From positions 47,253 to 111,252 of the forward strand of contig RHLS01000006.1 in the NCBI GenBank assembly GCA_003712145.1: 64,000 bases of DNA, read 5' to 3'. Both the position numbers and the translations under genes were made by a program. Shown piece after piece: positions 39,627 to 60,822 of this stretch. Under the pieces are notes generated by a model. The model saw only the letters and a program-made list of their open reading frames with translations, did no database searches and was not told where the DNA came from. How positions within the stretch are numbered: position 1 is the first letter of the stretch; every line of letters begins with the position of its first letter. Source of the stretch: Desulfuromonadales bacterium. Lineage in GTDB: Bacteria; Desulfobacterota; Desulfuromonadia; Geobacterales; Geobacteraceae.

Positions 39627-39803
39627 CTCTAAGAAATTGACGCGGACGAGTCAACACTTATTTTAACCGCATCTACCGTACTTCCGTCGCTTTTCGGGAG
39701 CCCACACGGAAAGAATTCGTGCCCCCCGCTTTCAATCCCGCATTGAGTAACTATAATTACATGGATACCGCACAACAATTTATAGCCTTTACGGTCCATA
39801 CCC

Positions 39804-40550: not shown

Positions 40551-42045
40551 AAACGGTTCCCTTGCCCGGTTCGCTCTCCACCGTAACGGCACCGTCGTGC
40601 TGCCTGACGATACCGAACACGATGGAAAGCCCGAGCCCCGTCCCCGTCCCCGGTTCCTTCGTGGTAAAAAACGGCTCGAAAATACTTCGTGCCGTAGTGT
40701 CATCCATCCCATTTCCCGTGTCGCCGACCGTCATGAGGGCATACCGTTCCGCCTCCGGAAGAATGGCCTGTTCGGTCGTCACGTCGGAGCGAAGGACTAT
40801 TTCCGTCCTGATGGTGAATTCACCCCCTTCGGGCATGGCGTCACGGGCGTTGGAGGCGAAGTTCATCAGGATTTGGGCGATCTGCACCGGATCGGCGACG
40901 ATGACCGGGTCGGCGACGCTCAGGGCGGTGGTGATCCGGATCCCTTTACCGAGGAGTCGTCCCAGGAAGTCGAGCCGTTCCTCGATGACGTCGTTCAGGG
41001 GAACCGGCCTGAATTCGGACGCGTGCCTGCGGCTGAACGTCAGAAGTCCCCTGTTGATCGCCGCCGCATGCCCGACCGACGCGAGGATCTGTTGGGCATT
41101 ATACCGTGCGGCCTCCCCTGTTGCCGGATCGTCGGCGATCAACTCGGCGTAGCCGGTTATGGCGGTGAGGATATTGTTGAAGTCATGGGCGACCCCTCCG
41201 GCCATCCGACCGAGGGCCCGCATCTTCTCCGAATGGAGCAGCTGCTCCTCCATCTCCTTTTTCTCCCGGATGTCCCGGGCAATGGAATCGCACATCAGAA
41301 AATCCTGCCGCTCGTCACAGATGACCTTCGACTTGACGAAGACCGGCAGATGCCGACCGTCCCGCGCCAGGAATTCCATTTCCCCCTCGAAATATCCCTT
41401 CTTTTTCAGCTTCTGGAAACGATCAAAGCTCCATCGCAGGGACTCGGGGGTCAGGAAGTCGGCGAGACTTCTGCCGATCATCTCGTCCGGCTCGTAGCCG
41501 AGGTTCGCGGCCATGGTCCGGTTGCAGAGCATGATGGCGGCATCGCCGTTTAGGGAATACATCATGTCCGGCGCGCCATCGTAGAGCTTGCGGTATTTGT
41601 CCACCGCATCCACGAGCTTCTGCTCCAGGTTGACCCGGCTGGTCACGTCGAGCATCGTCATGACGACGAGCCTCACCGAGCCGTCGGCATGGATCAGTGG
41701 ATAGGCACTGGTGCCGAGATAGCGGGGATCATCACCACAGGTGTAGACAACGTGCAGGTCCTTCTGGCGCAGGCCGGTATCGAAGCAGGCGCCGGCCGCG
41801 CAGCGATACTTATCGAACTTGATGTGGCAGGGTTTTTCCGGATTGTGGTGGATCTCATAACAGCGGCTGCCGATCACCTCGCTCGGCGTCTTGCCGAATT
41901 TTTCGCCGTAGGCCCGGTTGGCGTAGACGATGGAGCAGTCCTCCTTCACGACGATGATACTGACGCCGATGGTGTCGAGGATGGACGAAAGAAAGTCTTC
42001 CCGCTCTCCGCCTACCGCTCCGCGCTCATCCATCCCCCTGCTCAT
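40516..42045 (-). CDS. Cytoplasmic PAS-PAS histidine kinase
   Basis: Cys/His-rich PAS, second PAS, MAGGVAHDFNN, FEPFFTTK; its 3' end overlaps the convergent regulator. Confidence 0.9.
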   Translation of the reverse strand: MSRGMDERGAVGGEREDFLSSILDTIGVSIIVVKEDCSIVYANRAYGEKFGKTPSEVIGSRCYEIHHNPEKPCHIKFDKYRCAAGACFDTGLRQKDLHVVYTCGDDPRYLGTSAYPLIHADGSVRLVVMTMLDVTSRVNLEQKLVDAVDKYRKLYDGAPDMMYSLNGDAAIMLCNRTMAANLGYEPDEMIGRSLADFLTPESLRWSFDRFQKLKKKGYFEGEMEFLARDGRHLPVFVKSKVICDERQDFLMCDSIARDIREKKEMEEQLLHSEKMRALGRMAGGVAHDFNNILTAITGYAELIADDPATGEAARYNAQQILASVGHAAAINRGLLTFSRRHASEFRPVPLNDVIEERLDFLGRLLGKGIRITTALSVADPVIVADPVQIAQILMNFASNARDAMPEGGEFTIRTEIVLRSDVTTEQAILPEAERYALMTVGDTGNGMDDTTARSIFEPFFTTKEPGTGTGLGLSIVFGIVRQHDGAVTVESEPGKGTVFRVLFPLYTPA

Positions 42046-42267
42046 GACATCGTCCCCCTGGTCATTTTCCTGACGCGACTCTCCCTGTCCCAAGCTTAGT
42101 TATAGCATCCCCCTTGCCGGACTCAACCGCACGGGCGCGCCTTCCCTCCCGAAATCGCCAGAAAAACGTGAATCATTTGTGATTGTTTCGTGATTAATTC
42201 GCCGCCCGCCCCCGTAAACTTTTACCAGACAACACGGTCACAATGGATCGCTCCGGGGGTGAAGAGT

Positions 42268-44964
<2,697 letters not shown>

Positions 44965-44986
44965 CCTGAAACGGAGACGATCCGCC

Positions 44987-45787
44987 ATGCTCGACGCCCT
45001 CAGGAACCACTGGCCCGAATACCTCATGGAGGCAGCGGGACTCGGCACCTTCATGGTATCGGCCGGACTCTTCGGGGTCATCCTCTTCCATCCGGCCTCG
45101 GCAATGGTCCAGGCAATCCCCGCCCCGCTGCCGCGCCGGCTCCTCATGGGGCTCGCCATGGGGCTGACCGCCATCGGCATCATTTACTCCCCCTGGGGGC
45201 GGCAGTCGGGGGCCCACCTGAACCCGGCGGTGACCCTCACCTTCACCGCCCTCGGCAAGGTGGCCCCCTGGGATGCGTTCTTTTACATCCTCGCCCAGTT
45301 CGTCGGCGGCATGACAGGGGTCTACCTGGCGCTTGTCCTTCTTGGAGAGCGGTTCGCCCGGCCGCCGGTCTCCTACGTGGCGACCATGCCGGGGAAGTAT
45401 GGCCCCTGGGTCGCCTTCGCCGCCGAGGCGGTCATCACCTTCATCCTCATGACGGTGGTCCTCACCACGAGCAACATCCGCAGGACCTCCCGCTACACCG
45501 GGCTCTTCGCCGGCTGTCTCGTGGCCACCTACATCACCCTCGTGGCACCCATCTCGGGGATGAGCATGAATCCAGCCCGCTCCTTCGCCTCCGCCTTTCC
45601 CGGGGGGCTCTGGGACAACCTCTGGATCTACTTCACGGCGCCCCCCCTCGGGATGCTGGCTGCGGCGGGCTTCTACCGGGGGATTCTGAAGGGGCACGAC
45701 ATCTACTGCGCCAAGCTGAACCACCACACCACGCGGCGCTGCATCTTTCTCGGCTGCCGGTTCGGCGACCTGCTGAAAGGGAAATGA
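44987..45787 (+). CDS. MIP-family channel (aquaporin) with a Cys/His-rich C-terminal tail
   Basis: SGAHLNPAVT and SGMSMNPARS NPA motifs; six TM segments. Confidence 0.93.
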   Translation: MLDALRNHWPEYLMEAAGLGTFMVSAGLFGVILFHPASAMVQAIPAPLPRRLLMGLAMGLTAIGIIYSPWGRQSGAHLNPAVTLTFTALGKVAPWDAFFYILAQFVGGMTGVYLALVLLGERFARPPVSYVATMPGKYGPWVAFAAEAVITFILMTVVLTTSNIRRTSRYTGLFAGCLVATYITLVAPISGMSMNPARSFASAFPGGLWDNLWIYFTAPPLGMLAAAGFYRGILKGHDIYCAKLNHHTTRRCIFLGCRFGDLLKGK

Positions 45788-45788
45788 C

Positions 45789-46802
45789 ATGGTTTCACGG
45801 ATGCGGATAGCGGCAACGGTCCTTGTGCTCACGCTCATGGCTACCCTCCCCGCCTTCGCCGCGCCGAAGGTGGTCGGGGTGGGCGCCATCGGCATGACGG
45901 TCGCGGACATGGAGCGCTCCGTCGCCTTCTACACGGAGGTGCTCGGCTTCCGGACGCTTTCGGACGCCGAGTTCCACGACCCCCGCTTCGACCGGCTCAC
46001 CGGGGTCTTCGGCGCCCGGGTGCGGGTGGTGCGGCTGGCCCTGGGGAAGGAGGAGGTGGAGCTGACCGAATACCTCACCCCCTCATGCCGGCCGGTCCCC
46101 CCCGACTCCCGGAGCAATGACGGGTGGTTCCAGCACATCGCCATCGTGGTGCGGGACATGGACGCCGCCTGGGAGCGGCTGCGCAAACACCGTGTGAAAC
46201 CGATCTCGGTGGCCCCCCAGCGGATCCCCGACTGGAACCGGGCCGCCGCCGGCATCCGCGCCTTCTATTTCCGCGACCCGGACGGCCATCCCCTGGAGCT
46301 TATCTGGTTTCCCGCCGGCAAGGGGGATCCCCGCTGGCAGGAGAAGACGGAGGGCCTCTTCCTCGGCATCGACCACACCGCCATCGCCGTCGGCGACACG
46401 GAACAAAGCCTCGCCTTCTACCGCGACACACTGGGGCTCGCCGTGGCGGGGGAGAGCCTCAACCACGGCATCGAGCAGGAGTACCTCAACCACGTCTTCG
46501 GCTCCCGGGTCCGGATCACCGGCCTCAAGGCGCCTGCTGGTCCGGGGATCGAGTTTCTGGAGTACGTCGTCCCCCGGGACGGCCGCCCCTACCCCGACGA
46601 TGCCCGGCCGTGCGACCTCTTCCACTGGCAGGTGACCCTGCGGGTGGAGGAGGCAGAGGGGTTCCGGGGGAGGCTCGCCGAAAGGCGGACCCGCTTCGTC
46701 TCGCCGGAGGTGGTCGATGTCACGAACCTGGGACTGGAGGGAGCGAAGGCCCTCATGGTGCGCGACCCGGACCGCCACGCATTGCGGCTGGTTGAGCAGT
46801 AG
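45789..46802 (+). CDS. Two-domain VOC (glyoxalase-like) protein with a signal peptide
   Basis: HIAIVV..., YFRDPDGHPLEL, IDHTAIAV, IEFLEY; N-terminal Sec signal (PAFA-A). Confidence 0.85.
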   Translation: MVSRMRIAATVLVLTLMATLPAFAAPKVVGVGAIGMTVADMERSVAFYTEVLGFRTLSDAEFHDPRFDRLTGVFGARVRVVRLALGKEEVELTEYLTPSCRPVPPDSRSNDGWFQHIAIVVRDMDAAWERLRKHRVKPISVAPQRIPDWNRAAAGIRAFYFRDPDGHPLELIWFPAGKGDPRWQEKTEGLFLGIDHTAIAVGDTEQSLAFYRDTLGLAVAGESLNHGIEQEYLNHVFGSRVRITGLKAPAGPGIEFLEYVVPRDGRPYPDDARPCDLFHWQVTLRVEEAEGFRGRLAERRTRFVSPEVVDVTNLGLEGAKALMVRDPDRHALRLVEQ

Positions 46803-46838
46803 CAGCAGACAACACGCCATCCGTTAATGGAGGAAACC

Positions 46839-48404
46839 ATGAACAGCGAGCGTTACGACGTCATCATCATCGGCAGCGGAGCGGGCGGAGGAACCCTGGC
46901 GCACCGCCTGGCCCCCTCCAGCAAGCGGATCCTCCTCCTGGAGCGGGGAGAGTACGTCTCCCGGGAGAAGGACAACTGGAACCCGCGGGCCGTGAACGTG
47001 GAGGGGAAGTACCAGACGAAGGAGCTCTGGCACGACCGGGACGGGAAGGAACTCCACCCCCACACCAACTACTGGGTCGGGGGGAACACCAAGTTCTACG
47101 GGGCGGCCCTCTTCAGGCTCCGGAAGGAGGACTTCGGGGAGCTTCGCCACCACGGCGGCATCTCCCCCGCCTGGCCTATCACCTACGATGAACTGGAGCC
47201 CTACTACACCCAGGCGGAAGAGCTCTATCAGGTCCACGGCCGGCGGGGCGAGGACCCCACGGAGCCGCCGGCGAGCGCCCCCTACCCCTGCCCCCCGGTG
47301 AGCCACGAGCCGCGGATCCAGGAGCTTTCCGACGACTTCGCCCGCCTGGGGCTGAAGCCCTTCCACACGCCGCTGGGGATCCTTCTGGACGAAGGGAACC
47401 CGCGCAGCCGCTGCATCCGCTGCAACACCTGTGACGGCTACCCCTGCCTGGTCTACGCCAAGTCCGACGCCCAGGTGCTGGCCGTGGACGAGGCGATCAG
47501 TCACCCCAACGTGACGCTCATGACCGGCGCCTGCGTGGAGCGGCTGGAGACGGGCCCGTCGGGGCGCGAGGTGACGAAGGTGATCGTCAGTCGCAACGGC
47601 GCCCGGGAGGAGTTCGCGGCCGACATCGTGGTGGTCTCCTGCGGGGCCATCAACTCGGCGGCGCTCCTGCTTCGGTCGGCCAACGACCGGCATCCCAACG
47701 GCCTCGCCAACGGGTCGGACGTGGTGGGGCGCCACTACATGGGGCACGTGAACTCCGTGCTCATGGCCATCTCCAAGTGCCCGAACCCGACGGTCTTCCA
47801 GAAGACGCTGTCCTTCAACGACTTCTACCTCGCCTCAAAGGAGTGGGAATACCCCATGGGGCACATCTCCTTCGTCGGCAAGCTCGACGCCGAGACCCTG
47901 AAGGCCGGCGCTCCGGCCCTCACCCCCGGCTTCACGCTGGAGTACATGGCGAACCACTCCATCGACTTCTGGCTCACCTCGGAGGATCTCCCGGACCCCG
48001 CCAACCGGGTAACCATCGACCGCCAGGGGAACATCGTCCTCGCCTACCAGCCCAACAACGAGGAGGGGCATAAGCGCCTCATCGCCAAGCTGAAGAACTT
48101 GATGCAACAGCAGACTGCGTGCCCCGAGCACGGCCATGAGTGCCACCAGGGGCTCTTCGCCCGTAACCTCTTCGTGGGGCAGCGGATCCCCCTTGCCGGC
48201 GTGGCCCACCAGAACGGCACGGTCCGCTTCGGCACCGACCCGCAGACCTCGGCCCTCGACCGAAACTGCAAGGCCCACGAGGTAGACAACCTCTACGTGG
48301 TGGACGCCAGCTTCTTCCCTTCGTCCGGAGCGGTGAATCCGGCCCTCACCGTCATGGCCAACGCCCTGCGGGTGGGGGACCACCTCCTGGCACGTCTGAA
48401 GTAA
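46839..48404 (+). CDS. GMC-family FAD oxidoreductase
   Basis: IIGSGAGGG, VGGNTKFYGA, CIRCNTCDGYPC, HQNGT, NPALT. Confidence 0.92.
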   Translation: MNSERYDVIIIGSGAGGGTLAHRLAPSSKRILLLERGEYVSREKDNWNPRAVNVEGKYQTKELWHDRDGKELHPHTNYWVGGNTKFYGAALFRLRKEDFGELRHHGGISPAWPITYDELEPYYTQAEELYQVHGRRGEDPTEPPASAPYPCPPVSHEPRIQELSDDFARLGLKPFHTPLGILLDEGNPRSRCIRCNTCDGYPCLVYAKSDAQVLAVDEAISHPNVTLMTGACVERLETGPSGREVTKVIVSRNGAREEFAADIVVVSCGAINSAALLLRSANDRHPNGLANGSDVVGRHYMGHVNSVLMAISKCPNPTVFQKTLSFNDFYLASKEWEYPMGHISFVGKLDAETLKAGAPALTPGFTLEYMANHSIDFWLTSEDLPDPANRVTIDRQGNIVLAYQPNNEEGHKRLIAKLKNLMQQQTACPEHGHECHQGLFARNLFVGQRIPLAGVAHQNGTVRFGTDPQTSALDRNCKAHEVDNLYVVDASFFPSSGAVNPALTVMANALRVGDHLLARLK

Positions 48405-48427
48405 CGTTTGCGAAAGGAGATTCTGCC

Positions 48428-49522
48428 ATGAGCACCATGAAAGCCGTTGCCGTCACCCCCGGCGTTGCCCGGAGCGCCCGCCTGATCCAGGTCCCGGTGC
48501 CGGAACTGTCCGCTGACCAGGTCCGGGTAAAGATGATCCGCGTCGGCATCTGCGGCACCGACCTGGAGATCGACCGGGCCGAGTACGGCCAGGCTCCGCC
48601 GGGCGAGGAGGACCTGATCCTCTGCCACGAGAACTTCGGCAAGGTGGAATCGGTCGGCGCAAACGTGAAGGGGATCGCCCCCGGCGACCACGTGGTCGCC
48701 ATGGTCCGGCGTCCCGACGACTGCCCCAACTGCCGCGCCGGCGAGCAGGACATGTGCATCACCGGCAACTATACGGAGCGGGGGATCAAGGGGCGGCACG
48801 GCTTCCTCTCCGAATTCTACGTGGAGTCCCCCGAGTATCTCATCCCCATCCCCCCTGAACTCAGGGAGGTGGCGGTGCTCCTGGAACCGCTGACCGTGGT
48901 CGAGAAGGGGATCCGCCACGCCTGGGCCGCCCAGGAGCGCATGCGGGCCTGGACGCCGCAGCGGGCCCTGGTTCTGGGCGCCGGCCCCATCGGGATGATG
49001 GCCGCGGTGGTGCTGCGGTTGAGGGGGCTGGAGACGATCGTCTACGCCCGCGACACGAGCCCGGTCATCACGGACCGGGTGGCGGCCATCGGCGCCCGGT
49101 ATATCCCCCAGCTGGACGAGAAGGGGGAGATGATCAACCACATCGGCGAGCTTCCCAAGCAGTGCGGGGGCTTCGATTTCATCCTGGAGGCGACCGGGGC
49201 CGAGCAGATTGCCCTGAGCGCCATGCGGATCATCGGCCTCAACGGCATTCTCTGCCTCACCTCGGTCACCGGGAGCGAGAAACCGATGGAGATCTGCCCC
49301 GGCTGCCTCAATCTCGAACTCGTCCTCGGCAACCGGAGCGTCTTCGGCAGCGTCAACGCCAACAGGGTCGACTTCGAGCAGGGGGTCAGGGACCTGGCCG
49401 CCGCCCGGGAGCGGTGGCCCGGCTGGCTCGAAAACGTCATCACGCGCCGCGTGCCGATCGACCGCTTTCGCGATTCCTTCGAGCGGGAGCCCGGCGACCT
49501 GAAGGTTGTGGTGGAATTGTAG
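48428..49522 (+). CDS. Zn-dependent glucose 1-dehydrogenase-like MDR enzyme
   Basis: GICGTD, CHE, RRPDDCPNC...DMC, VLLEPL, VLGAGPIG, GSVNA; resembles archaeal-type glucose dehydrogenase. Confidence 0.8.
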   Translation: MSTMKAVAVTPGVARSARLIQVPVPELSADQVRVKMIRVGICGTDLEIDRAEYGQAPPGEEDLILCHENFGKVESVGANVKGIAPGDHVVAMVRRPDDCPNCRAGEQDMCITGNYTERGIKGRHGFLSEFYVESPEYLIPIPPELREVAVLLEPLTVVEKGIRHAWAAQERMRAWTPQRALVLGAGPIGMMAAVVLRLRGLETIVYARDTSPVITDRVAAIGARYIPQLDEKGEMINHIGELPKQCGGFDFILEATGAEQIALSAMRIIGLNGILCLTSVTGSEKPMEICPGCLNLELVLGNRSVFGSVNANRVDFEQGVRDLAAARERWPGWLENVITRRVPIDRFRDSFEREPGDLKVVVEL

Positions 49523-49548
49523 CGAGAGAACGCAAAGGAGATGCACCA

Positions 49549-50079
49549 ATGGCCAGTCCCACGGTCATTGACGAAAATATCCGGCAGCTGCAGCAGGGGC
49601 TCGACCTGATCGCCCGGCTCACCGACCCGCTGTACCAGACCACCGTCGGCCCCTGCTTCAATACCGGCGTCGGAATGCACTTTCGCCACATCCTCGACTA
49701 CTACACCTGCTTTCTTGCCGGCATGGAGAGGATCATCGACTACGACGCCCGGGAACGCAACGAGCTCCTTGCCCGGGAACGCAGCCGCGCCATGGGAAAG
49801 ATCCGGAGAACCATCGACGAGCTGGACGTGCTCCGGTTTCAGTCAGGGCTCCTGGAAAGCCGCGTACTGGTCAGGGACAACGAGCAGGACGACGGCACGG
49901 GGAAACCTTCCCCCTGTCATTCCACCGTCGGACGGGAGCTGAAGTTCCTCCTCTCCCACACGGTGCACCACTTCGCCATCATCGCGATGATGCTTCGGAT
50001 CCAGGGATTCGAGCCCTTCGAGGAGTTCGGCATCGCCGCGTCAACCATCGAGTGCCGACGGCGCTATGCCGTGAAATAA
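49549..50079 (+). CDS. DinB-superfamily protein
   Basis: His triad: GMHFRHILDYY ... FLLSHTVHHFAII; AAGGAG RBS. Confidence 0.85.
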   Translation: MASPTVIDENIRQLQQGLDLIARLTDPLYQTTVGPCFNTGVGMHFRHILDYYTCFLAGMERIIDYDARERNELLARERSRAMGKIRRTIDELDVLRFQSGLLESRVLVRDNEQDDGTGKPSPCHSTVGRELKFLLSHTVHHFAIIAMMLRIQGFEPFEEFGIAASTIECRRRYAVK

Positions 50080-50090
50080 AGATAAAGAAA

Positions 50091-50232
50091 GAGGCTCCTG
50101 CAAAACGTAATGAGGAGGTCGGGATGCTAGGCGCAAGTGAGCGAGGAAGCGAGGCGTACCCATTGGTACGTTGAGCTTTCGAGAGAGCGGCAACAACGCA
50201 GACCGGCCCCGCAATAGTTTTGCAGGAGCCTC
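50091..50232. mobile_element. MITE E2, 142 bp
   Basis: Perfect 16-bp TIR GAGGCTCCTGCAAAAC/GTTTTGCAGGAGCCTC; flanking 4-bp direct repeat GAAA; central GAGGCGTACC-catt-GGTACGTTGAG hairpin. Confidence 0.8.
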
Positions 50233-50245
50233 GAAAGGATCTCCT

Positions 50246-50641
50246 ATGCTCAGTAAAGGACTAAAGACCATCAGTTGGATTCTGCGGATCGTGGCGGCCG
50301 TCATCCTCCTCCAGACCCTCTTCTTCAAGTTCACCGGCGCCCCGGAATCGGTCTACATCTTCTCCACCCTGGGGATGGAGCCCTGGGGCCGGATCGGCTC
50401 GGGGGTGGTGGAACTGGTGGCCTCCATCCTGCTCCTCATGCCCCGCACGGTGGCGGTCGGCGCCATCATCGCCCTCGGCACCATGGCGGGGGCCATCGGC
50501 GCCCACCTGACCAAGCTCGGGATCGAGGTGATGGGCGACGGCGGCACCCTCTTCATCCTCGCCCTGGTCACCTTCGCAAGCTGCGCGGTGGTGCTCTTCC
50601 TCCACCGCCGGGAGATCCCGGTGATCGGCGGCAAGCTGTAG
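50246..50641 (+). CDS. DoxX-family membrane protein
   Basis: LQTLFFKFTGAPES...GRIGSGVVEL...GAIGAHLT; four TM segments. Confidence 0.88.
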   Translation: MLSKGLKTISWILRIVAAVILLQTLFFKFTGAPESVYIFSTLGMEPWGRIGSGVVELVASILLLMPRTVAVGAIIALGTMAGAIGAHLTKLGIEVMGDGGTLFILALVTFASCAVVLFLHRREIPVIGGKL

Positions 50642-50672
50642 CCGCCACAACATCGAAACAGGAGGGACAACA

Positions 50673-50912
50673 ATGCACTTTCTCTGGTTTATCCTGATCG
50701 GAATCGCTGCCGGCTGGCTGGCCGGCCAGATCATGAGGGGTGGCGGATTCGGCCTCGTCGGAGACCTCGTCGTCGGTGTCATCGGGGCACTGTTCGGCGG
50801 TTTCCTGTTTGGTCTTCTCGGCCTCTCCGCCTTCGGCCTGTTGGGCCAGCTCGTCACCGCAACGGTCGGCGCAATCGTCCTGCTCTTTCTGCTCCGCCTG
50901 ATCAAGCGCTGA
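50673..50912 (+). CDS. GlsB/YeaQ/YmgE (transglycosylase-associated) membrane protein
   Basis: IGIAAGWLA...GDLVVGVIGALFGG...GAIVLL. Confidence 0.9.
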   Translation: MHFLWFILIGIAAGWLAGQIMRGGGFGLVGDLVVGVIGALFGGFLFGLLGLSAFGLLGQLVTATVGAIVLLFLLRLIKR

Positions 50913-50940
50913 ACCGGCCGGGGAGCCGAAGGAGTCGACC

Positions 50941-52779
50941 ATGGACGGTTCTTCTCAATCGACAGACATCTTCCGCATCGCCAACCCCTTCCGGGACCCC
51001 CTTCGCCGCGGCGCCTTCGCCCTGGCGGCAGGATTGGCGGAGCACCTCTTCGGCCTGCGGCGCTGCGCGGGACTCTACGGGCGGATAACTTCAGGAGATA
51101 AGGACGAAGGCTTCCCGGCCCGGGCGCTGGAAATCCTCGGGATTGAATGCGCCGCCCACCCTGCGGAGCTGGCCCAGGTGCCGGGCAGCGGCCCCGTGGT
51201 CGTGGTGGCCAACCACCCCTTCGGCGCCGTGGAGGGAATCGTTCTTGCCCGGCTGCTCCGCCAGATCCGTCCCGACGTGAAGTTTCTCGCCAACTACCTC
51301 CTGGGCCGCCTCCCCGAGATGCGCCACCTCTTCATCGGCGTCGATCCCTTCGGCGGACGCGGAGCAGGGGGACGAAACGTCGGGCCTCTCCGCGAAGCGA
51401 TCCGCTGGCTCCGGGAAGGGGGAATGCTCGTCGTCTTCCCGGCCGGCGAGGTCTCGCACCTCTCCATCCGGCGGCGGGAGGTGTCCGACCCCCGCTGGAG
51501 CGAGACCCTGGCCCGCATCGTCCGCCATGGCGGCGCTGCGGCGGTGCCGGTCCATTTCGCCGGGCGCAACTCTCCCCTCTTCCATGGCGCCGGGCTCGTT
51601 CACCCTCTCCTGCGCACCGCCCTTCTCCCACGGGAGCTCCTCAACAAGCGGGACTCGACGATCCGGGTGCGGGTCGGCACCCCGGTCCCGAACCGCAAGC
51701 TCTGCGGCTTCGCCACCGACCGGGAGATGGTCGCTTATCTCCGTTTACGGACCTACCTCCTCGGCAGCGCCAGCGAAACCGAAACCGGCGCGAAGCAGAC
51801 CGCCTCCCTCTCCGGATTCGGGCCCCTCGCCATCCCCGTCGAGCCGGAGCTTCTCGCGGCCGAGATCGGAAACCTTCCGGACGACCACTTCCTCGTCGAG
51901 AGCGGCCCCTTCCGGGTGGTCGTGGCGGAAGCAGGCCGGATCCCGGCAACCCTGCGGGAGATCGGGAGGCTGCGGGAGATTACCTTCCGCCAAGTGGGTG
52001 AAGGTACCGGCCGTCCCTCGGACCTGGACCGGTTCGACGCCCACTATCGCCACCTCTTCATCTGGAATCGGGAGAAATGCGAGCTGGTGGGGGCCTACCG
52101 GCTGGGAGAGACCGACACGATCATCCAGCAGTTTGGCATGGAAGGACTCTACACCAGCACCCTCTTCACCTACCGCGTCGATTTCCTCGACCGGATCGGC
52201 CCTGCCCTTGAGGTGGGGAGATCCTTCGTCCGACCCGAGTACCAGAAATCGTACACCCCTCTGCTGCTCCTCTGGAAAGGGATCGGCCGCTTCGTGGCCG
52301 CAAATCCCCGCTACCGGGTCCTCTTCGGGGCGGTCAGCATCAGCCGTGAGTACAGCGACCTCTCCCGGCAGCTCATCGTCAGTACTCTCCAGCAGGGGCG
52401 CCTCATCCCCGAGCTGGCCCGGATGGTCACCGCCCGGACCCCCCTGAGACTCAAGCCCCTCAGGGTCCGGGGTTGCGAACCGGCCGGCGACTGGCCCGCG
52501 GCCCTCGACCTGGAGGACGTTGCCGCCATGGTCGCGGACATCGAGGTGGATCATAAGGGGGTACCGGTCCTCCTGCGGCACTACGTCAATCTGGGGGGGA
52601 AATTTCTGGGCTTCAACATCGACCGGGAATTCAGCGACGTCCTTGACGGCCTCGTCCTCGTGGACCTCCTGGAGACTGAGGGAAAGACCCTGGAGCGGTA
52701 CATGGGGAAGGACGGGGCAAGGGCGTTTCTCGCCTGGCACTCCCGGGAGGGGAATGAGGCCGTGCGGCGGAGCGCGTAG
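50941..52779 (+). CDS. Bifunctional acyltransferase (PlsC-like plus GNAT/OlsB-like), OlsF-like aminolipid synthase
   Basis: N-domain ANHPFGAVEG and FPAGEVS; C-domain EIGRLREITFR.VGEG...DLDRFD, LEVGRSFV..EYQK. Confidence 0.75.
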   Translation: MDGSSQSTDIFRIANPFRDPLRRGAFALAAGLAEHLFGLRRCAGLYGRITSGDKDEGFPARALEILGIECAAHPAELAQVPGSGPVVVVANHPFGAVEGIVLARLLRQIRPDVKFLANYLLGRLPEMRHLFIGVDPFGGRGAGGRNVGPLREAIRWLREGGMLVVFPAGEVSHLSIRRREVSDPRWSETLARIVRHGGAAAVPVHFAGRNSPLFHGAGLVHPLLRTALLPRELLNKRDSTIRVRVGTPVPNRKLCGFATDREMVAYLRLRTYLLGSASETETGAKQTASLSGFGPLAIPVEPELLAAEIGNLPDDHFLVESGPFRVVVAEAGRIPATLREIGRLREITFRQVGEGTGRPSDLDRFDAHYRHLFIWNREKCELVGAYRLGETDTIIQQFGMEGLYTSTLFTYRVDFLDRIGPALEVGRSFVRPEYQKSYTPLLLLWKGIGRFVAANPRYRVLFGAVSISREYSDLSRQLIVSTLQQGRLIPELARMVTARTPLRLKPLRVRGCEPAGDWPAALDLEDVAAMVADIEVDHKGVPVLLRHYVNLGGKFLGFNIDREFSDVLDGLVLVDLLETEGKTLERYMGKDGARAFLAWHSREGNEAVRRSA

Positions 52780-52923
52780 GGATCAACGCCGGATATTCCA
52801 GGAAGGGGACATGACATCTCATGCCGGGAAGAGGAGGAGCCCCAAAGGGCCGTCCGTGTGACGGCTCACAACCGTCAAGCCTTCCCTCTTTGAGGGAGCG
52901 TTATGACATCAGGAGGTAAGAAC

Positions 52924-55059
52924 ATGAAGCACGAACCGAAAGGGCAGTTTGCGCAGGCCGCTGATCGACAAGGAAACACTCCAACGGCGAAGCCGGTCGA
53001 CCGGCATTTATTCCCGAAGAAGGTGGTCGGCACCCTGGCCGCTTTCCTGTTGTGTTGCGGAGTCGCTTCGGCTAATCAGGTTCAGGGGAACAACCCCACC
53101 AAGCTGCGCCAGTTCATCGACCAGCAGGTCAGCGGCATCCAGAAGCTGATGGTTCCGGCGAAGGATGCGGACCTCCCGCAGCCGCGGCTTCCCAATGGAA
53201 TGCCCGACCCGTTCTTCCAAACGACCGAGGCGAAGCGTTACCTCGGCAAACAACTCTTCCACGACCCGGTCCGGATGGTCAGAATTCGGCCGGAGTTCGG
53301 TGGCATCCCCGCCACCGCGCAGACCGCCTCCTGCGCCACCTGCCACCAGGGCGAATCGGCGTCGAAGGCCGGCACGCTGTTCAACTTCGCCGCCGGCGGC
53401 GAGGGGCGGCACTACACGGACGCGGAGGGAAACTTCATTCCGCGCCGGCGGCCCAACATGGCCATCCTCCCGATCCTGCGGCAGACCCCTCTCTTCCCCG
53501 GTGACGCACTGGTGGACGAGATCCCCACCCTCACGGACATCTACGAATTCGCGGTGGGGAGCCCGGCCCGGGGCCGCAAGCTGCCGGACCCTGGTCGGCT
53601 GCTGCGAACCGGTCGACTCGACGCCCTGGACAGCGTCGCGCGCAATGCGCCAGGCTGTATCGGCGCCGCCTTCAACAACCGCCTCCTGATGGGAGGGTTC
53701 GCCGGAGAGCCCGACGCATCGCCCGGGGGCCTCAATCCGTTCGGGCATCCAGCCCAGGAAAACATCGCGCTCCTGCTCCTCGATGCTCACCGGATGCTGG
53801 AAGCCCAGTCAGCTGAACTCCAGAAGTACGCGACCTATCGGAAGCTCTTCCGGGATGCGTTCCCCGAGGAGGCCGCCCAGGCCGACGCCGTGGGCGACTT
53901 GAACCTCCTGATCAACGACATGAACGTCTTTCGGGCGACGGCGACCTTCCTGCGAACCACGGTCACCCGGGACACCCCCTGGGACCGGTTCCTGGCCGGA
54001 GATAATCGTGCGCTGACGCTCAAGCAGCGCCGGGGCGCCAAACTCTTTTTCACGCCGGCGACAGAGGGTGGAGCCGGTTGCTACACCTGCCACAGCGGCC
54101 CGATGCTCAACAAACAAGTAAACGACCCCGACGTGGCCGGCGTCGGTCAGTTCGTGGAAGAGAACTTCCACAACCTCGGGCTCACCGACCACCCGCTCCA
54201 GGCCTTGAACAAAGTAGCGAGAAACGATCCCAACTTCCGCGATGACGGAAGGAGGGAAATCACGGGCCGTGACAGCGACGCCTTCAAGTTCCGCACGCTG
54301 ACGCTGCGGCAGCTCAAGGACGCCCGGTTCTTTTTCCATAACGGCTCGTTCACGAGCGTGAAGGCTGTGGTGCGGTATTTCAACGCCGGTGTGCCACAGG
54401 ACGCAGAGGCCGCTGCGGCAGGGACCCTCTCGCCCCGCTTCACGCACCCGCGCGGACCGGGCTCGCCTGCCGGCCTGGGCCTGAGCGACGCTCAGGTGGA
54501 CGATCTCGCCGACTTCCTCGAGAACGGCCTCTACGATCCCGCGTTCGTGCACTACAATCCCAAATCACCGACGAGGATGTTCCAGTTGAGCCCACCGGAC
54601 TTCCTCTATTCGGTCCACCGTCCGAATCTCGCGGCGCTGGGCGCCATTGACGGCCGGCCCCTCAGCGGCCTCCCGCAGGACAACAACGACGCCCTCTCCC
54701 GGCGCGACATGGGACTTGAGTTCCTGGACGTGACGGGGCAGATGGACAAGGCACTGAGCAACTCCACCCGCAGGGGCAACGGTCGGAGCCAGATAGACGA
54801 CTACAGGTTCACCAACAGCAGTTCGTCGATGGTGGACACGCACCTTCTCGTGGTCGTCAAAGGCCTTTCGCAGCAAAGCCGGCTGGACAACGCCAGCGGG
54901 ACCACGAGCGCCGGCGATCCCTATCTCCGCGTGTTCCTCCCCAATGGTGTCCTTCTTCCCGGCCAGAGCATCGACGTGAAGCTGTTCTTCAAGCAGCAGC
55001 ACTACGCGCCACCGCCGACATACTCGCTGACGCTCCTCTCGGGACAGGGGAACCCATAA
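52924..55059 (+). CDS. Dihaem cytochrome c peroxidase/MauG-superfamily protein with large inserts and a C-terminal extension
   Basis: LGKQLFHD, CATCH, CYTCH, FRTLTLRQ...FFHNGS; signal peptide; AGGAGG RBS. Confidence 0.85.
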   Translation: MKHEPKGQFAQAADRQGNTPTAKPVDRHLFPKKVVGTLAAFLLCCGVASANQVQGNNPTKLRQFIDQQVSGIQKLMVPAKDADLPQPRLPNGMPDPFFQTTEAKRYLGKQLFHDPVRMVRIRPEFGGIPATAQTASCATCHQGESASKAGTLFNFAAGGEGRHYTDAEGNFIPRRRPNMAILPILRQTPLFPGDALVDEIPTLTDIYEFAVGSPARGRKLPDPGRLLRTGRLDALDSVARNAPGCIGAAFNNRLLMGGFAGEPDASPGGLNPFGHPAQENIALLLLDAHRMLEAQSAELQKYATYRKLFRDAFPEEAAQADAVGDLNLLINDMNVFRATATFLRTTVTRDTPWDRFLAGDNRALTLKQRRGAKLFFTPATEGGAGCYTCHSGPMLNKQVNDPDVAGVGQFVEENFHNLGLTDHPLQALNKVARNDPNFRDDGRREITGRDSDAFKFRTLTLRQLKDARFFFHNGSFTSVKAVVRYFNAGVPQDAEAAAAGTLSPRFTHPRGPGSPAGLGLSDAQVDDLADFLENGLYDPAFVHYNPKSPTRMFQLSPPDFLYSVHRPNLAALGAIDGRPLSGLPQDNNDALSRRDMGLEFLDVTGQMDKALSNSTRRGNGRSQIDDYRFTNSSSSMVDTHLLVVVKGLSQQSRLDNASGTTSAGDPYLRVFLPNGVLLPGQSIDVKLFFKQQHYAPPPTYSLTLLSGQGNP

Positions 55060-55078
55060 CCGGGCGATATTTTAACCT

Positions 55079-55192
55079 CATTAGCACTGATCCTCCGCCA
55101 CCAAGATCTTTCCCCCTCCCTTGACGGGAGGGGGCTTGGGGGTGGGTAATGTTTCAATCGGCTGAATTTATGGCGCTTTCACCCCCACCCTC
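55079..55192. repeat. Truncated inverted copy of the 15858-16035 element
   Basis: TTAGCACT..CCGCCACCAAG..TCCCCCTCCCTTGACGGGAGGGGG..GGGGGTGGGTAATGTTTCAA..GCTGAAT..CTTTCACCCCCACCCT aligns with the reverse complement of about 15915-16032. Confidence 0.75.
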
Positions 55193-55265
55193 CGCCCTGG
55201 GGGACAGGAACCCGGGGGACATGTTATTTTCCTCTCCACGCAACACTGAAACACGGAGGTTCACC

Positions 55266-55718
55266 ATGAAAACGCTGTCATCACTCATGCTCGTCGGCCT
55301 CATGCTCGTCATCGCCGCCCCCATCGCCTGGGGGGCCAAGGGCGAGATCAACACCACCCTCATCGGCAAGAAGGCGATCAAGGGGTACGACCCGGTCGCC
55401 TATTTCACCGACGGGAAGCCGGTGGAGGGGAAGAAGGAGTTCACCTACGAATGGAAGGGGGCCAAGTGGTTCTTCGCAAGCGCGGAGCACCGCGACCAGT
55501 TCAAGGCCGACCCGGACAAGTACGCGCCCCGGTATGGCGGCTACTGCGCCTATGCGGTGGCCATGGGGAAGACCGCCGACATTGACCCAAAGGCCTGGAA
55601 GATCGTCGACGGCAAGCTCTACCTGAACTATGACCAGGACATCCAGAAGAAGTGGCAGGCGGACATCCCCGGATTCATCGAGAAGGCCAACAGGAACTGG
55701 CCCGGCGTCCTGAAGTAG
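55266..55718 (+). CDS. Periplasmic YHS-domain protein (Cys form of a family with Sec variants)
   Basis: Signal peptide; GYDPVAYF, WFFASAEHRDQFKADPDKYAPRYGGYCAYAV. Confidence 0.85.
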   Translation: MKTLSSLMLVGLMLVIAAPIAWGAKGEINTTLIGKKAIKGYDPVAYFTDGKPVEGKKEFTYEWKGAKWFFASAEHRDQFKADPDKYAPRYGGYCAYAVAMGKTADIDPKAWKIVDGKLYLNYDQDIQKKWQADIPGFIEKANRNWPGVLK

Positions 55719-55721
55719 CCC

Positions 55722-57371
55722 TTGGAGTTCGCCCGCTGGTTCATGGAGCTCGCCCGCGGGGCCATGGGGATGCCTCTCCTCCAGGGGGCCATCGCCGCCC
55801 TCTGCACCTTCGTCCTGGAAGACCCGACCACCGTCGGGAGCGGCCTTCTGGTGGCGGCGGGAAAGATGTCGTTCACCACCGCCTTCGTGGGGCTCACCCT
55901 CGGGATTGCCGGCGGGGATTTCGGCCTCTACCTCCTGGGGCGGTTCGCCCAGGGACGGGTGGAACGGTGGGGTATCATCGACCGGGAGCGGCTGGAGCGG
56001 GCCTCTGCCTGGTTCGGACGGAACCTGATTTCGGCGGTCCTCTCGTCCCGCTTTCTGCCGGGGATGCGGCTCCCCACCTACGTGGCGGCGGGCATTCTCA
56101 AGGTGCCGGCGGGGAGGTTCCTCGCCGTGGCCGTGGCCGCGTCGGTCGCCTGGACCCTCATCCTCCTCTCCCTCACCGTCCGCCTCGGGGGGGCGGCCCT
56201 GGAGCGGGCGGGGCGGATGAAGCTCCCCTTGGGACTCGCCCTCGTGGTGCTCATCGCCTTCGGCCAGTGGCTGGGGGCGCGGCGGCGCCGACGGTTCGAA
56301 CGGGAGGGTGCGGAGCCGGTCACGTCGGGCTTTGAATTCTGGCCCCCGTGGCTCTTCTACCTGCCGGTCGTCCCCTGGTGGCTCTGGCTCTCCCTGCGGC
56401 ACCGGGGGGTGCTCCTGCCGACGGCGGCCAACCCCTCCATCCATGCCGGGGGATTCATCGGGGAGTCGAAGGGGGCGATCCTGAGCCTCGTGCCCCGGGA
56501 ACAGCGGCGGTGGGTAGCCCCATGGGTGGCCTGGCGGAAGGAAGCCGGTGCCTCCATCGACGCTGCCTGCGCCGAAGCAGCCGCCATCATGGAACGGAAC
56601 GCCCTCGTCTTCCCCCTCGTGGCAAAGCCCGACGTGGGACAGCGGGGAGCGGGGGTAAGGCCCCTTCAGGACAGTCGGCAACTCAGGGAATACCTGGAGG
56701 CGTTTCCGGCCGGCGCCCGGTTGATCCTCCAGACGCTCGTTCCCTTTCCCCACGAGGCGGGGATCCTCTGGTACCGGCTGCCGGGGGAGGATCGGGGGAG
56801 GATCTTCTCCGTCACCCGGAAGGAATTCCCCGCAGTGACGGGCGACGGGCAACGGACCCTGCGGGATCTGATTCTGGCGGACCCCCGGGCCCGGCGCCTG
56901 CGGCGGGTCTACCTCCGACGCCACCGGGAGCGGCAGGAGGCGATTCCGGCGGCCGGAGAGCGGGTGCCCCTGGTCTTTGCCGGCAACCACTGTCAGGGGG
57001 CGATCTTCCGCAACGGCGCGGAGCTGGCATCACCAGAGCTTGCCGCCCGGATCGACGAAATCGCCCGCTCCATTCCGGAGTTCCACTTCGGCCGCTTCGA
57101 CCTCCGCTTCCGGTCCGAGGAAGAGCTTTCGCGGGGCGAAGGGTTCGTCATCGTGGAGATCAACGGCGCCGGTGCCGAGGCGACTCACATCTGGGATGCC
57201 CGGACCCGCCTCGGCGATGCCTACGCCGTGCTCTTCGCGCAGTTCCGCATCCTCTTCGAGATCGGCGCCCGGAACCGGGAACGGGGGTTTCGCCCAGTCA
57301 CCGTTTGGCAGTTTCTCGGTGACCTCTTAGCCTATCGGCGACTGGCACAGGGGTATCCGGAAACCTGGTAA
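55722..57371 (+). CDS. DedA/VTT membrane domain fused to an ATP-grasp ligase domain
   Basis: DedA: [30 protein letters not shown]-grasp: [29 protein letters not shown]. Confidence 0.8.
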
Positions 57372-57391
57372 AGCACAGAAGGAGAAATGAC

Positions 57392-57913
57392 ATGAAACCG
57401 CTGAAAGTGCTTATGGCATCACTGGTACTCTTCGCCCTGGCTGCGGCCGCCTCGGGAGAAAAGGGGAAATCGGCCACCATCAAACTCTACTCGGCACAAA
57501 AGAAGGGGTACATCATGAGTGAAAAGGTCATCAAGAGCGACGCCGAATGGCGCAAGCAGCTGACCCCCGAGCAGTACCACATCACCCGCGAGAAGGGAAC
57601 CGAACGGGCCTTCTCGGGCCAGTACGCGAACCATCACGATAAGGGGATCTACCAGTGCGTCTGCTGCGACAACGACCTCTTCAGCTCGGAACACAAGTTC
57701 GAATCGGGGACCGGCTGGCCCAGCTTCTGGCAGCCGATCGCCCCGGAGAACATTACAACCAAGCCCGACCGCAGCCTCTTCATGACCCGGACGGAGGTCC
57801 TCTGCAGCCGCTGCGACGCCCACCTGGGCCATGTCTTTGACGACGGACCGAAGCCGACCGGACTGCGCTATTGCATGAACTCCGCAGCCCTCAAGTTCAG
57901 GAAAGCCGATTGA
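57392..57913 (+). CDS. msrB: Peptide methionine-(R)-sulfoxide reductase, exported
   Basis: [35 protein letters not shown]; signal peptide. Confidence 0.96.
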
Positions 57914-57950
57914 CCGGAAATTCCGGCACACCGGCGAACAGGATCGCGCC

Positions 57951-59225
57951 ATGAAACGTGTCGTTATCGTCGGCGGCGGCTTCGGCGGACTGAACGCCGC
58001 GAAGGTGCTGGGGAGCAGGCCGGGGGTCGAGGTGACCCTCATCGACCGGAAGAACCACCACCTCTTCCAGCCCCTCCTCTACCAGGTGGCGACGGCGGGG
58101 CTTTCCCCGGCCGACATCGCCGCGCCGATCCGGGTGCTCCTGGCTCGGCACCGCAACGTCCACGTCCACCTGGGGGAGGTACGCGGTGTCGACCTCGCCG
58201 GGCGCACCGTCATGACCAGCACGGACACCTACCCCTACGATTACCTCGTCCTCGCCTGCGGCGCCCAGCACGCCTACTTCGGCCACGAGGAGTGGGAGGA
58301 ATCCGCTCCGGGGCTGAAGACCCTGGAACAGGCAACGGAGATCCGGCGCCGGGTCCTCTCGGCCTTCGAGGAGGCGGAGCTGGAAAAGGACCCCCAGAGG
58401 CAGCGGAAGCTCCTTACCTTCGCCGTCGTCGGCGGGGGAGCAACGGGGGTCGAGCTGGCCGGCGCCATCGGGGAGATGAGCCGGTACACCCTGATCCGGG
58501 ACTTCCGGAGCATCGATCCGACCATGAGCCGGGTGATCCTGATCGAGGCGGGACCGCGGATACTCTCCGCCTTTGCGGAAAAGCTCTCCGCCGACGCTGT
58601 CCGCTACCTGGAAGAGCTCGGCGTCGAGGTGATGACCTCCCGGGCGGTAACGCGGATCGACGCGGAGGGGGTGGAGCTGGGGGGGGAGTTCATCCCGGCT
58701 GCAACGGTGCTCTGGGGAGCCGGGGTGAAGGCATCTTCCCTCGGGACGGAACTTGGGGTGGAAACCGACCGCCAGGGTCGGGTCATCGTGCAACCGGACC
58801 TGAGCGTGCCAGGGTATCCGGAACTCTTCGTCATCGGCGATCAGGCCAACTGTCAAAACGAAAAAGGGGAGCCGCTCCCCGGCCTCGGCCCCGTCGCGCT
58901 TCAGCAGGGGCGTCACGCGGCCCGGAACATCCTTCGTGAACTGGCAGGCAAGCTACGCCGCCCCTTCCGTTACCTCGACAAGGGTCACATGGCAACCATC
59001 GGCAGAAGCCGGGCCATTGGCGAGATCCGCCGGATACGCTTCTCCGGCTTCATCGCCTGGCTCGCCTGGCTCTTCGTCCACATCTATTTCCTGGCGGGCT
59101 TCCGCAACCGCTTCTTCGTCGTCCTCCAGTGGGGATGGTCGTATCTCTCCTTCGGCCGGGGAGCCCGCCTGATCACGAGTCGGGAATGGCGCTCCTATCC
59201 CGGCAGCACAGGAGGCGACAGATGA
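57951..59225 (+). CDS. ndh: Type II NADH:quinone oxidoreductase-like flavoprotein
   Basis: VIVGGGFGG, FQPLLYQVAT, VVGGGATGVE, FVIGD, F.YLDKG.MATIGR. Confidence 0.9.
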   Translation: MKRVVIVGGGFGGLNAAKVLGSRPGVEVTLIDRKNHHLFQPLLYQVATAGLSPADIAAPIRVLLARHRNVHVHLGEVRGVDLAGRTVMTSTDTYPYDYLVLACGAQHAYFGHEEWEESAPGLKTLEQATEIRRRVLSAFEEAELEKDPQRQRKLLTFAVVGGGATGVELAGAIGEMSRYTLIRDFRSIDPTMSRVILIEAGPRILSAFAEKLSADAVRYLEELGVEVMTSRAVTRIDAEGVELGGEFIPAATVLWGAGVKASSLGTELGVETDRQGRVIVQPDLSVPGYPELFVIGDQANCQNEKGEPLPGLGPVALQQGRHAARNILRELAGKLRRPFRYLDKGHMATIGRSRAIGEIRRIRFSGFIAWLAWLFVHIYFLAGFRNRFFVVLQWGWSYLSFGRGARLITSREWRSYPGSTGGDR

Positions 59226-59297
59226 CAGTGTGGTGGAGCGATAAAACATCTATTCATTTTTCTGAATATATGGTACTGTTTTACAGGAGGTGAAACC

Positions 59298-59450
59298 ATG
59301 AATGAACTCTTGATGGTGGGAGGTTTTCTGGCTTTCTGGATTGTCCTCAACAAAGTGGTCCTTCCCCGGCTCGGGGTAGAGACGTGAATGGCTGATGCCT
59401 GTCCTTCCGGGAAGAAGGACAAGAAACAAACCGACAAAAAAGGGGCGTGA
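59298..59450 (+). CDS. Candidate 50-aa membrane-anchored selenoprotein (UxxxxC)
   Basis: AGGAGG RBS; MNELLMVGGFLAFWIVLNKVVLPRLGVET-UGA-MADACPSGKKDKKQTDKKGA-stop; SECIS-like hairpin after the UGA. Confidence 0.6.
59400..59421 (+). promoter_or_regulatory. Putative bacterial SECIS element
   Basis: TGTCCTTC-CGGGAA-GAAGGACA: 8-bp stem starting 12 nt after the UGA (59385-59387), with a G-rich apical loop. Confidence 0.55.
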
Positions 59451-59469
59451 GTTTCACGCCCCTTTTTTG
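59435..59469. terminator. Bidirectional intrinsic terminator
   Basis: CAAAAAAGGGGCGTGA-GTT-TCACGCCCCTTTTTTG between convergent genes. Confidence 0.85.
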
Positions 59470-59491
59470 TGTCATCATGCTTTACACACGG

Positions 59492-60642: not shown

Positions 60643-60822
60643 GGGACTCGGAACAAACAAATATACCGTATTACATCTCATCTTCAGGCCATCTTCGCCG
60701 CTCCCTCAATTGCAAAATCCTCGACGTAGCCCTGCTACGCCTGCGGCTTTGCTCAATCAGGAGCGACAAATCTGTCCCAAATCTGAGCGTAAAACTTGGT
60801 ATATCAGTTTATTCCGAGTCCC
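60643..60822. mobile_element. MITE E3, 180 bp, inserted at the tlpA stop codon
   Basis: 25-bp TIR with 22/25 matches (GGGACTCGGAACAAACAAATATACC); TTA direct repeats at 60640-42 and 60823-25; central CGTAGC-cct-GCTACG hairpin. Confidence 0.8.

Follow-up and report, generated by a model that had tools for sequence, protein, structure and literature searches.

Aminolipids help bacteria to withstand low phosphate, acid, heat, low salt and cationic peptides, and we know of no tailoring of these lipids other than hydroxylation, methylation and taurine transfer. A polypeptide that joins a lipid-translocating membrane domain to a cytoplasmic enzyme modifying the lipid head group is familiar from MprF, which is linked to cationic peptide resistance, and in cyanophycin synthetase, GshF and Ddl, ATP-grasp domains join an amino group to a carboxylate that they have first activated as an acyl phosphate. 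The locus analysed here is reminiscent of these systems. It lies in a window of 64,000 nucleotides (positions 47,253 to 111,252 of contig RHLS01000006.1, assembly GCA_003712145.1) from a Desulfuromonadales bacterium, the source of the DNA being freshwater sediment; all coordinates below are those of the window, in which genes were identified from a listing of open reading frames (ORFs) and by Pfam and NCBIfam scans. The gene used as anchor of the analysis (55743..57371, plus strand) encodes a DedA/VTT membrane domain and, fused to it, an ATP-grasp ligase. An original prediction made from the sequence had combined the genes around this anchor into one envelope-stress system. We conclude that a core module, consisting of an aminolipid synthase, the DedA::ATP-grasp fusion and a DinB-like protein, together with TANGO2 and/or a YHS-DoxX pair, is real, conserved and uncharacterised, and that the nine-gene system is an over-extension.

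The aminolipid synthase of the window (50941..52779, plus strand) shares its bifunctional architecture with OlsF, an N-terminal Acyltransf_2 O-acyltransferase domain (PF19576, 52.5 bits) being followed by a C-terminal OlsB-like GNAT domain (PF13444, 82.7 bits). In Vibrio cholerae the OlsF gene VCA0646, which stands last in an operon of four genes, directs the synthesis of ornithine lipid; low salinity induces it, low phosphate does not, and it raises polymyxin tolerance (PMC12186959). OlsF closes this operon, VCA0649-VCA0646, just as it closes an array of seven genes found head to tail on a Vibrio aquimaris chromid in the order DedA, ATP-grasp, DinB, TANGO2, YHS, DoxX and OlsF, and with the latter OlsF the window protein shares 44.5% identity. 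This comparison of the two Vibrio loci is one of OlsF position, and the partner genes of the module go unmentioned in the V. cholerae paper (PMC12186959). Partners of the DedA, ATP-grasp, TANGO2 or DinB type do not appear in a 2026 review of these lipids either, and no paper describing the module was found in the literature searched. The parts thus come from known superfamilies and it is their combination that is without a described counterpart in that literature.

The likeness to MprF is one of design and does not extend to homology. A Pfam scan detects VTT as the sole family in the fusion and no MprF-type domain, and the two proteins differ in their membrane parts, which is DedA/VTT in the window protein, in their enzymes, an ATP-grasp ligase as opposed to the tRNA-dependent transferase of MprF, and in their substrates, presumably an aminolipid here and phosphatidylglycerol in the case of MprF.

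A core module conserved across phyla

The surroundings of the anchor were compared in 80 loci with 10-kb flanks and in three further loci from close relatives, in total 83 loci, 40 of them with full flanks, spanning at least nine phyla. Neighbours were detected by tblastn with the window proteins, by de novo clustering of ORFs and by jackhmmer families, and a gene was counted as a partner when found within 7 kb of the anchor. The most frequent partner is an OlsB/OlsF-type GNAT, which is found in 53 of the 83 loci and in 27 of the 40 fully flanked ones, followed by DinB (44 of 83; 21 of 40), YHS (36; 17), DoxX (35; 17), a TANGO2/NRDE protein with Cys2 and the NRD motif (29; 14), a PlsC/OlsA-type acyltransferase (20; 9) and NDH-2 (9; 4), whereas MsrB and a di-haem peroxidase are each found in just two loci, both of them fully flanked. 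At least one core partner is present in 31 of the 40 fully flanked loci. Since the partner families have few copies per genome, we infer that chance alone would bring a given partner into a span of about 14 kb at roughly 1% of loci.

The order of the genes is furthermore shuffled from one phylum to another. It is DinB-TANGO2-fusion-GNAT-PlsC in Hydrogenedentota and Sumerlaeota, DinB-TANGO2-fusion-OlsF in Acidobacteriota, and YHS-DoxX-DinB-TANGO2-fusion with a convergent OlsF gene in Planctomycetota; in Burkholderiales a divergent GNAT gene is followed by fusion-DinB-YHS-DoxX, often with an adjoining gene for an extracytoplasmic function sigma factor, and in Bdellovibrio the genes for PlsC, GNAT, DoxX and YHS are divergent from that of the fusion. 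Such shuffling over at least nine phyla argues for functional linkage, and the variable order implies that it is the core module itself that is conserved. The window conforms to this picture in that the DedA::ATP-grasp fusion is found beside both DinB and an aminolipid N-acyltransferase. The statement in the original prediction that DinB, DoxX, YHS and this type of ATP-grasp protein cluster in other phyla is borne out by the 83 loci, and of the system that it proposed, the core stands and the nine-gene set does not.

The fusion family as such is large: a search at E <= 0.001 gave 3287 clusters, relatives occur in no fewer than 590 genomes at species level, and sequences from different phyla are 50-60% identical. 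One contig labelled as a Paceibacterota metagenome-assembled genome (MAG; L002) has the fusion together with genes for GNAT and PlsC, which is surprising for a reduced genome of the candidate phyla radiation, and the contig may be mis-binned.

An apparently active ligase fused to a DedA domain

The VTT domain (PF09335) occupies residues 39-151 of the fusion and scores 53.8 bits against a cut-off of 33.9. The ATP-grasp assignment in the original prediction is correct, as a profile of 22 fusion homologues matches cyanophycin synthetases 2 and 1 in the PDB with an E-value of 3e-7, and as Foldseek aligns an AlphaFold2 (AF2) model of the fusion, with a predicted local distance difference test (pLDDT) score of 85, to cyanophycin synthetase, GshF and Ddl at their ATP-grasp domains, the best match (E 5e-9) being cyanophycin synthetase 1. 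The conserved Lys, Glu and E-x-N residues for ATP and Mg are moreover intact, K302, E345 and R462 being invariant in the alignment of the 22 homologues and E479 and N481 nearly so. Judging from this conservation and from the model, the ligase looks active. Identity to the three reference enzymes is nevertheless 14-21%, and the NCBIfam models of cyanophycin synthetase, which represent the full multi-domain enzyme of 862-871 positions, are matched with 15.6-18.5 bits against cut-offs of 850-877 and in the ATP-grasp region exclusively. The other domains of cyanophycin synthetase are missing, and unlike in cyanophycin synthetase, GshF and Ddl, the ATP-grasp domain is preceded by the DedA domain and a conserved hydrophobic FEFWPP segment.

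The strong structural matches to Ddl enzymes could also be taken to mean that the fusion serves polyprenyl-phosphate-linked wall or glycan precursors, the DedA domain acting as an UptA-like transporter of undecaprenyl phosphate and the ATP-grasp domain as a Ddl- or D-aspartate-ligase-like enzyme, and UptA is indeed the top NCBIfam match of the DedA domain. The score of this match, 47.7 bits, is however far under the equivalog cut-off of 250, and genes for peptidoglycan or glycans are not recurrent neighbours, whereas those for aminolipid acyltransferases are, for which reasons we regard a function in wall precursors as very improbable.

The fusion is found split in some organisms that are models or can be cultured. 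On plasmid 1 of Paracoccus denitrificans PD1222 (L115) an ATP-grasp protein annotated as hypothetical is encoded beside genes for an alpha/beta hydrolase and a VTT protein, and on a Salinivibrio chromid (L114) the order is VTT, ATP-grasp, DinB-like and NRDE, the ATP-grasp protein being annotated as D-alanine--D-alanine ligase.

The DinB, YHS and DoxX partners

The DinB-like protein of the window (49549..50079, plus strand) scores 17.7 bits with the Pfam DinB model, which is under the cut-off of 23, and its assignment to the DinB/YfiT fold as a metalloprotein is made because PF12867 is matched by 13 of the 15 members of its family, because the HxRH, DYD and HxxHH motifs are invariant in the family alignment, and because an AF2 model (pLDDT 91.5) matches YizA, YfiT and BH3987 in Foldseek. 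The protein hence combines a predicted four-helix bundle with a His-rich metal site, and it is counted as a core member of the module.

The exported YHS protein (55266..55718, plus strand) belongs to the YHS (seleno)protein family NF041384 (178 bits against a cut-off of 70) in the Cys form with the motif GGYC. The Cys of the GG[YWF]C motif is invariant in the family alignment, and all 52 instances of the motif in the loci retrieved have Cys, none having selenocysteine (Sec). The family is not exclusive to the module, as it is found in 12 genomes of the order that are without the ligase, and in these no DoxX is found within about 1.5 kb on either side of YHS. Near the anchor, DoxX is almost always found beside YHS where it is present at all. 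The DoxX-family membrane protein of the window (50246..50641, plus strand; PF07681, 24.6 bits against a cut-off of 23.6) is viewed here as an accessory partner of YHS; a complex prediction for DoxX and mature YHS returned a score of 0.00 and is evidence in neither direction. The sigma-F operon of Caulobacter that includes DoxX (PMC3511200) was considered as a parallel and dropped, since the context of DoxX differs.

These partners might alternatively be seen as parts of a module for a soluble thiol or peptide of low molecular weight, with a ligase resembling glutathione synthetase, a thiol S-transferase in DinB, thiol redox partners in YHS and DoxX, and the lipid genes as mere neighbours. The notion stems from the observations that GshF is among the top Foldseek matches of the ATP-grasp domain, that the DinB fold takes in bacillithiol and mycothiol transferases and that the YHS Cys is invariant. 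It is in poor agreement with the facts that the ligase is fused to or overlaps the DedA membrane domain in nearly all loci, that the commonest neighbour is an aminolipid N-acyltransferase, and that no cysteine-ligase or thiol-biosynthesis partner recurs in the loci examined. A soluble thiol is on this account highly unlikely as the product, and the small ligated thiol that the original prediction had offered as an alternative has gained nothing positive in its favour.

A proposed role in aminolipid modification

From the protein families and the analogies described above, the probable task of the module is to build a modified membrane lipid and to move it. We favour, by a narrow preference over all else, the reading that the locus is a copy of a widespread and uncharacterised aminolipid-linked module in which the lipid is supplied by OlsF, the head group is ligated by the ATP-grasp domain and the product is flipped by DedA. 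Of what was originally predicted, the building and flipping of an amino-acid or peptide lipid is hence the part that best fits the gene context, the chemistry being what we infer. The OlsF-like enzyme would make an acyloxyacyl amino lipid, probably ornithine lipid. By analogy with its closest folds, which are those of the ATP-grasp domains in cyanophycin synthetase, GshF and Ddl and which act on peptide or amino-acid carboxylates, the cytoplasmic ATP-grasp domain would phosphorylate the free carboxylate of the head group, or that of a lyso intermediate, and then ligate an amine or amino acid to it, and by analogy with the synthase-plus-flippase design of MprF, the fused DedA domain would move the lipid across the inner membrane. 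DinB and the TANGO2-type protein with a cysteine N-terminal-nucleophile (Cys-Ntn) fold, the latter of which is lost at this locus, may trim or recycle the head group, a role proposed for TANGO2 because the Cys-Ntn fold suits amide hydrolysis. The exported YHS(Cys) protein and the membrane protein DoxX, joined by NDH-2 in this sub-lineage, may form a quinone-linked periplasmic accessory, and their occurrence together suggests a quinone-linked redox or metal step in the periplasm. A bolder version would have the product constitute a new class of membrane lipid, namely an acyloxyacyl aminolipid that receives its extended head group from a flippase-fused ATP-grasp ligase and is turned over by a TANGO2-type cysteine amidase and the metalloenzyme DinB, with a quinone-linked periplasmic YHS(Cys/Sec)-DoxX pair in attendance; this we put forward as a tentative and rather doubtful proposal.

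Several observations weigh against a role in lipid modification. VCA0646 alone suffices for the synthesis of plain ornithine lipid in Escherichia coli (PMC12186959), which means that basic synthesis does not need the partners and that these may have another target. The window protein moreover misses the cut-off of the NCBIfam OlsF equivalog model (NF052615, 394.7 against 620 bits), and the module-linked OlsF of V. aquimaris likewise scores just 424 bits on this model. In nine of the 40 loci with full flanks the anchor has none of the partners in its vicinity; in all five genomes with a solitary fusion that were tested, a PF13444 acyltransferase is found elsewhere. At the locus itself, gaps of 123-300 nt separate several of the genes, which bears on the operon structure, and in the absence of TANGO2 the pathway may here be incomplete or altered.

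The sufficiency of VCA0646 is also an argument for an explanation in which the fusion leaves the finished lipid unmodified. It would then either provide the substrate, an amino acid or dipeptide, by supply or import, or be a mere transporter of ornithine lipid whose ATP-grasp domain has a regulatory or energising role, and the existence of stand-alone ATP-grasp forms (L041, L045 and the Paracoccus plasmid) is in agreement with it. However, the (near-)invariance of the ATP/Mg residues over phyla argues for true ligase chemistry, and we know of no ATP-grasp domain that serves as a transport motor. Supply or transport is accordingly an unlikely function of the fusion, though it is the least unlikely of the rival explanations considered here.

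As for the conditions under which an aminolipid-modifying module would be called upon, the trigger is likely to be envelope or osmotic stress, for instance low ionic strength, rather than oxygen, because the island that carries the genes encodes a compatible-solute-type hydrolase and an aquaporin, because the DNA is from a freshwater source, and because of the Vibrio data. The NtrC/histidine kinase pair next to the cluster is native and probably not the regulator of the module; in a search for the sigma-54 promoter pattern, matches were below chance expectation and none was found upstream of the cluster.

An acquired island and the loss of TANGO2

Five genomes of the same genus match the window only up to about position 39630 and again from about 59243, so that window positions of about 39626 and 59256 adjoin in same-genus genomes, and in one of them (G002) the two flanks are joined with 80 bp between them. 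The window from about 39630 to 59243 is consequently an island of about 19.6 kb, and the region at about 49.5-59.2 kb is the right half of this horizontally acquired island. The left half starts with an OmpR-type response regulator (39804-40550) and continues with a PAS histidine kinase (40516-42093, minus strand), a GH63/MGH1-like hydrolase (42190-44964), an aquaporin, a VOC protein, a GMC oxidoreductase and a glucose dehydrogenase, after which the genes from DinB to NDH-2 follow. Neither an integrase nor a tRNA came to notice at the island ends, no search having been aimed at them.

Two loci from Planctomycetota (L066 and L056) and one from Pyrinomonadaceae (L077) also have, in these distant phyla, genes of the aquaporin/VOC/GMC/glucose-dehydrogenase set beside the DedA::ATP-grasp module, the GMC protein of L066 and L077 being 73-77% identical to the window copy, and this gene set and the module may travel together.

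Among 150 other genomes of the order, the OlsF-like gene is found in none, and neither is the fusion, for which only plain DedA matches were obtained; the ATP-grasp protein is likewise found in 0 of 350 genomes of the phylum, which leaves a phyletic profile at phylum level uninformative. The nearest block is that of a Methylomirabilis MAG (L096), where DoxX, OlsF, YHS, the fusion and NDH-2 are found in the window order with identities of 74, 66, 73, 66 and 74%, respectively. These comparisons place the origin of the island outside the phylum. A Geobacter sp. MAG (L094) that is 90% identical to the window is colinear with it.

In this relative a 256-residue TANGO2 gene is found between DinB and DoxX, and in its place the window has a 140-nt dispersed repeat (50091..50233) with perfect terminal inverted repeats of 16 bp. 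No TANGO2/NRDE Cys-Ntn gene is found inside the cluster in the window, and the other TANGO2 protein of the genome is of a canonical, different subtype and encoded on another contig. The 140-nt element has seven more matches at about five other sites in this genome (G000), with 84-92% identity, and many copies in the five same-genus genomes, and it looks like a miniature inverted-repeat transposable element or a repeat of the repetitive extragenic palindromic type. TANGO2 has thus been lost from the locus, and the loss is associated with the repeat.

Passenger genes and the native flank

All genes listed in the original prediction, from DinB to a small ORF with an in-frame TGA, are present on the plus strand at the positions given there, but a di-haem protein gene, a YeaQ gene and the 140-nt repeat had been overlooked. 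The di-haem protein (52903..55059, plus strand; 718 residues) is CCP/MauG/MbnH-like by its match to PF03150 and its two CxxCH motifs, and scores 102 bits on TIGR04039 against a cut-off of 363; it has about 170 additional C-terminal residues and is shared with the close relative only. The YeaQ/GlsB/YmgE small stress membrane protein (50673..50912, plus strand; 79 residues; PF04226, 47 bits) is a lineage-specific insertion. Its gene is missing in the relative L094 and an 86%-identical copy occurs elsewhere in the same-genus genome G027, which suggests that native DNA was moved into the island after its acquisition. The exported MsrB (57392..57913, plus strand; TIGR00357, 201 bits) has an N-terminus resembling a signal peptide. 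MsrB and the di-haem peroxidase are outside the core module and, like YeaQ, are lineage-specific passengers. NDH-2, an NADH:quinone oxidoreductase (57951..59225, plus strand; PF07992 and NDH2_C), takes an intermediate position as a lineage-restricted accessory, since in Methylomirabilis its gene sits in the same order directly downstream of the DedA::ATP-grasp fusion and is therefore part of the block in this sub-lineage; its claimed membership holds for some lineages and not in general.

The candidate selenopeptide encoded by the small ORF (59298..59450, plus strand, with the TGA at 59385) is 50 residues long, would be a membrane peptide with a U-x4-C motif, and matches no Pfam or NCBIfam family. 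The TGA is kept in all seven genomes compared (the window, the relative and the five of the same genus), as is the MAD-x-C frame after it, even across an in-frame deletion of 3 nt, and substitutions upstream of the TGA relative to the close relative are mostly synonymous as counted from the alignment. About 12 nt past the TGA there is a conserved hairpin, one pair of which covaries, and the genome carries SelB (374 bits) and tRNA-Sec (75.6 bits), so that at the level of sequence the TGA, the downstream frame, the hairpin and the Sec machinery expected of a bacterial selenoprotein are all found. The ORF is a good selenoprotein candidate, as had been supposed. Since same-genus synteny resumes at 59243, it belongs however to the native flank also present in genomes without the island, and it is a native neighbour that is unrelated to the island and outside the core module. 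Its stop codon is overlapped by a bidirectional intrinsic terminator (59434-59470; a 17-pair stem with flanking T runs), which closes the plus-strand genes and is the only strong one of the region. An Rfam scan of 44-64 kb gave zero matches above threshold.

It may still be argued that all nine or ten co-oriented genes form a single envelope-stress system in which the making of a lipid or thiol is combined with the repair of oxidised envelope proteins on exposure of an anaerobe to oxygen. The genes are indeed co-oriented with no strong internal terminator and have the same order in the relative L094, NDH-2 accompanies the module in Methylomirabilis, and the exported MsrB adjoins a CcdA-TlpA pair that could reduce it, in the manner of extracytoplasmic methionine-sulfoxide repair by CcdA and a thioredoxin-like protein. 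CcdA and the TlpA-like redoxin are however native and MsrB is island-borne, which means that the adjacency arose at island insertion, and both this pair and the Sec peptide are found in five same-genus genomes that are free of the island. Furthermore, the scarcity of MsrB and the peroxidase near the anchor makes the repair of oxidised envelope proteins a matter of local juxtaposition, and many hosts of the module are aerobes (Burkholderiales, Vibrio and Acetobacteraceae), so that a role specific to the oxygen exposure of an anaerobe is unlikely. One system comprising all of the genes is therefore decidedly unlikely.

A second dispersed repeat (60674-60789) is found between the CcdA gene and that of the TlpA-like protein, and copies with about 80% identity are scattered over the same-genus genomes.

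Implications

To the aminolipid-linked DinB-TANGO2-DedA::ATP-grasp module, the locus adds a YHS-DoxX-NDH-2 accessory set, a defined island with an origin outside the phylum and a repeat-associated loss of TANGO2, and it separates the genes for MsrB, the peroxidase and the selenopeptide from the module. The island furthermore shows the module moving into a lineage that is, among the genomes searched, otherwise without such lipid genes. If the proposed function is true, ATP-dependent ligation of the head group coupled to flipping would join the known ways of tailoring aminolipids, and a second, tRNA-independent design for synthesising and flipping a lipid would exist alongside MprF. It would likewise name a class of lipid substrate for the TANGO2 family, the function of which is disputed in human disease. 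The module in any case offers testable bacterial partners for TANGO2, DinB, DoxX and YHS, all of them large families in which few functions have been assigned.

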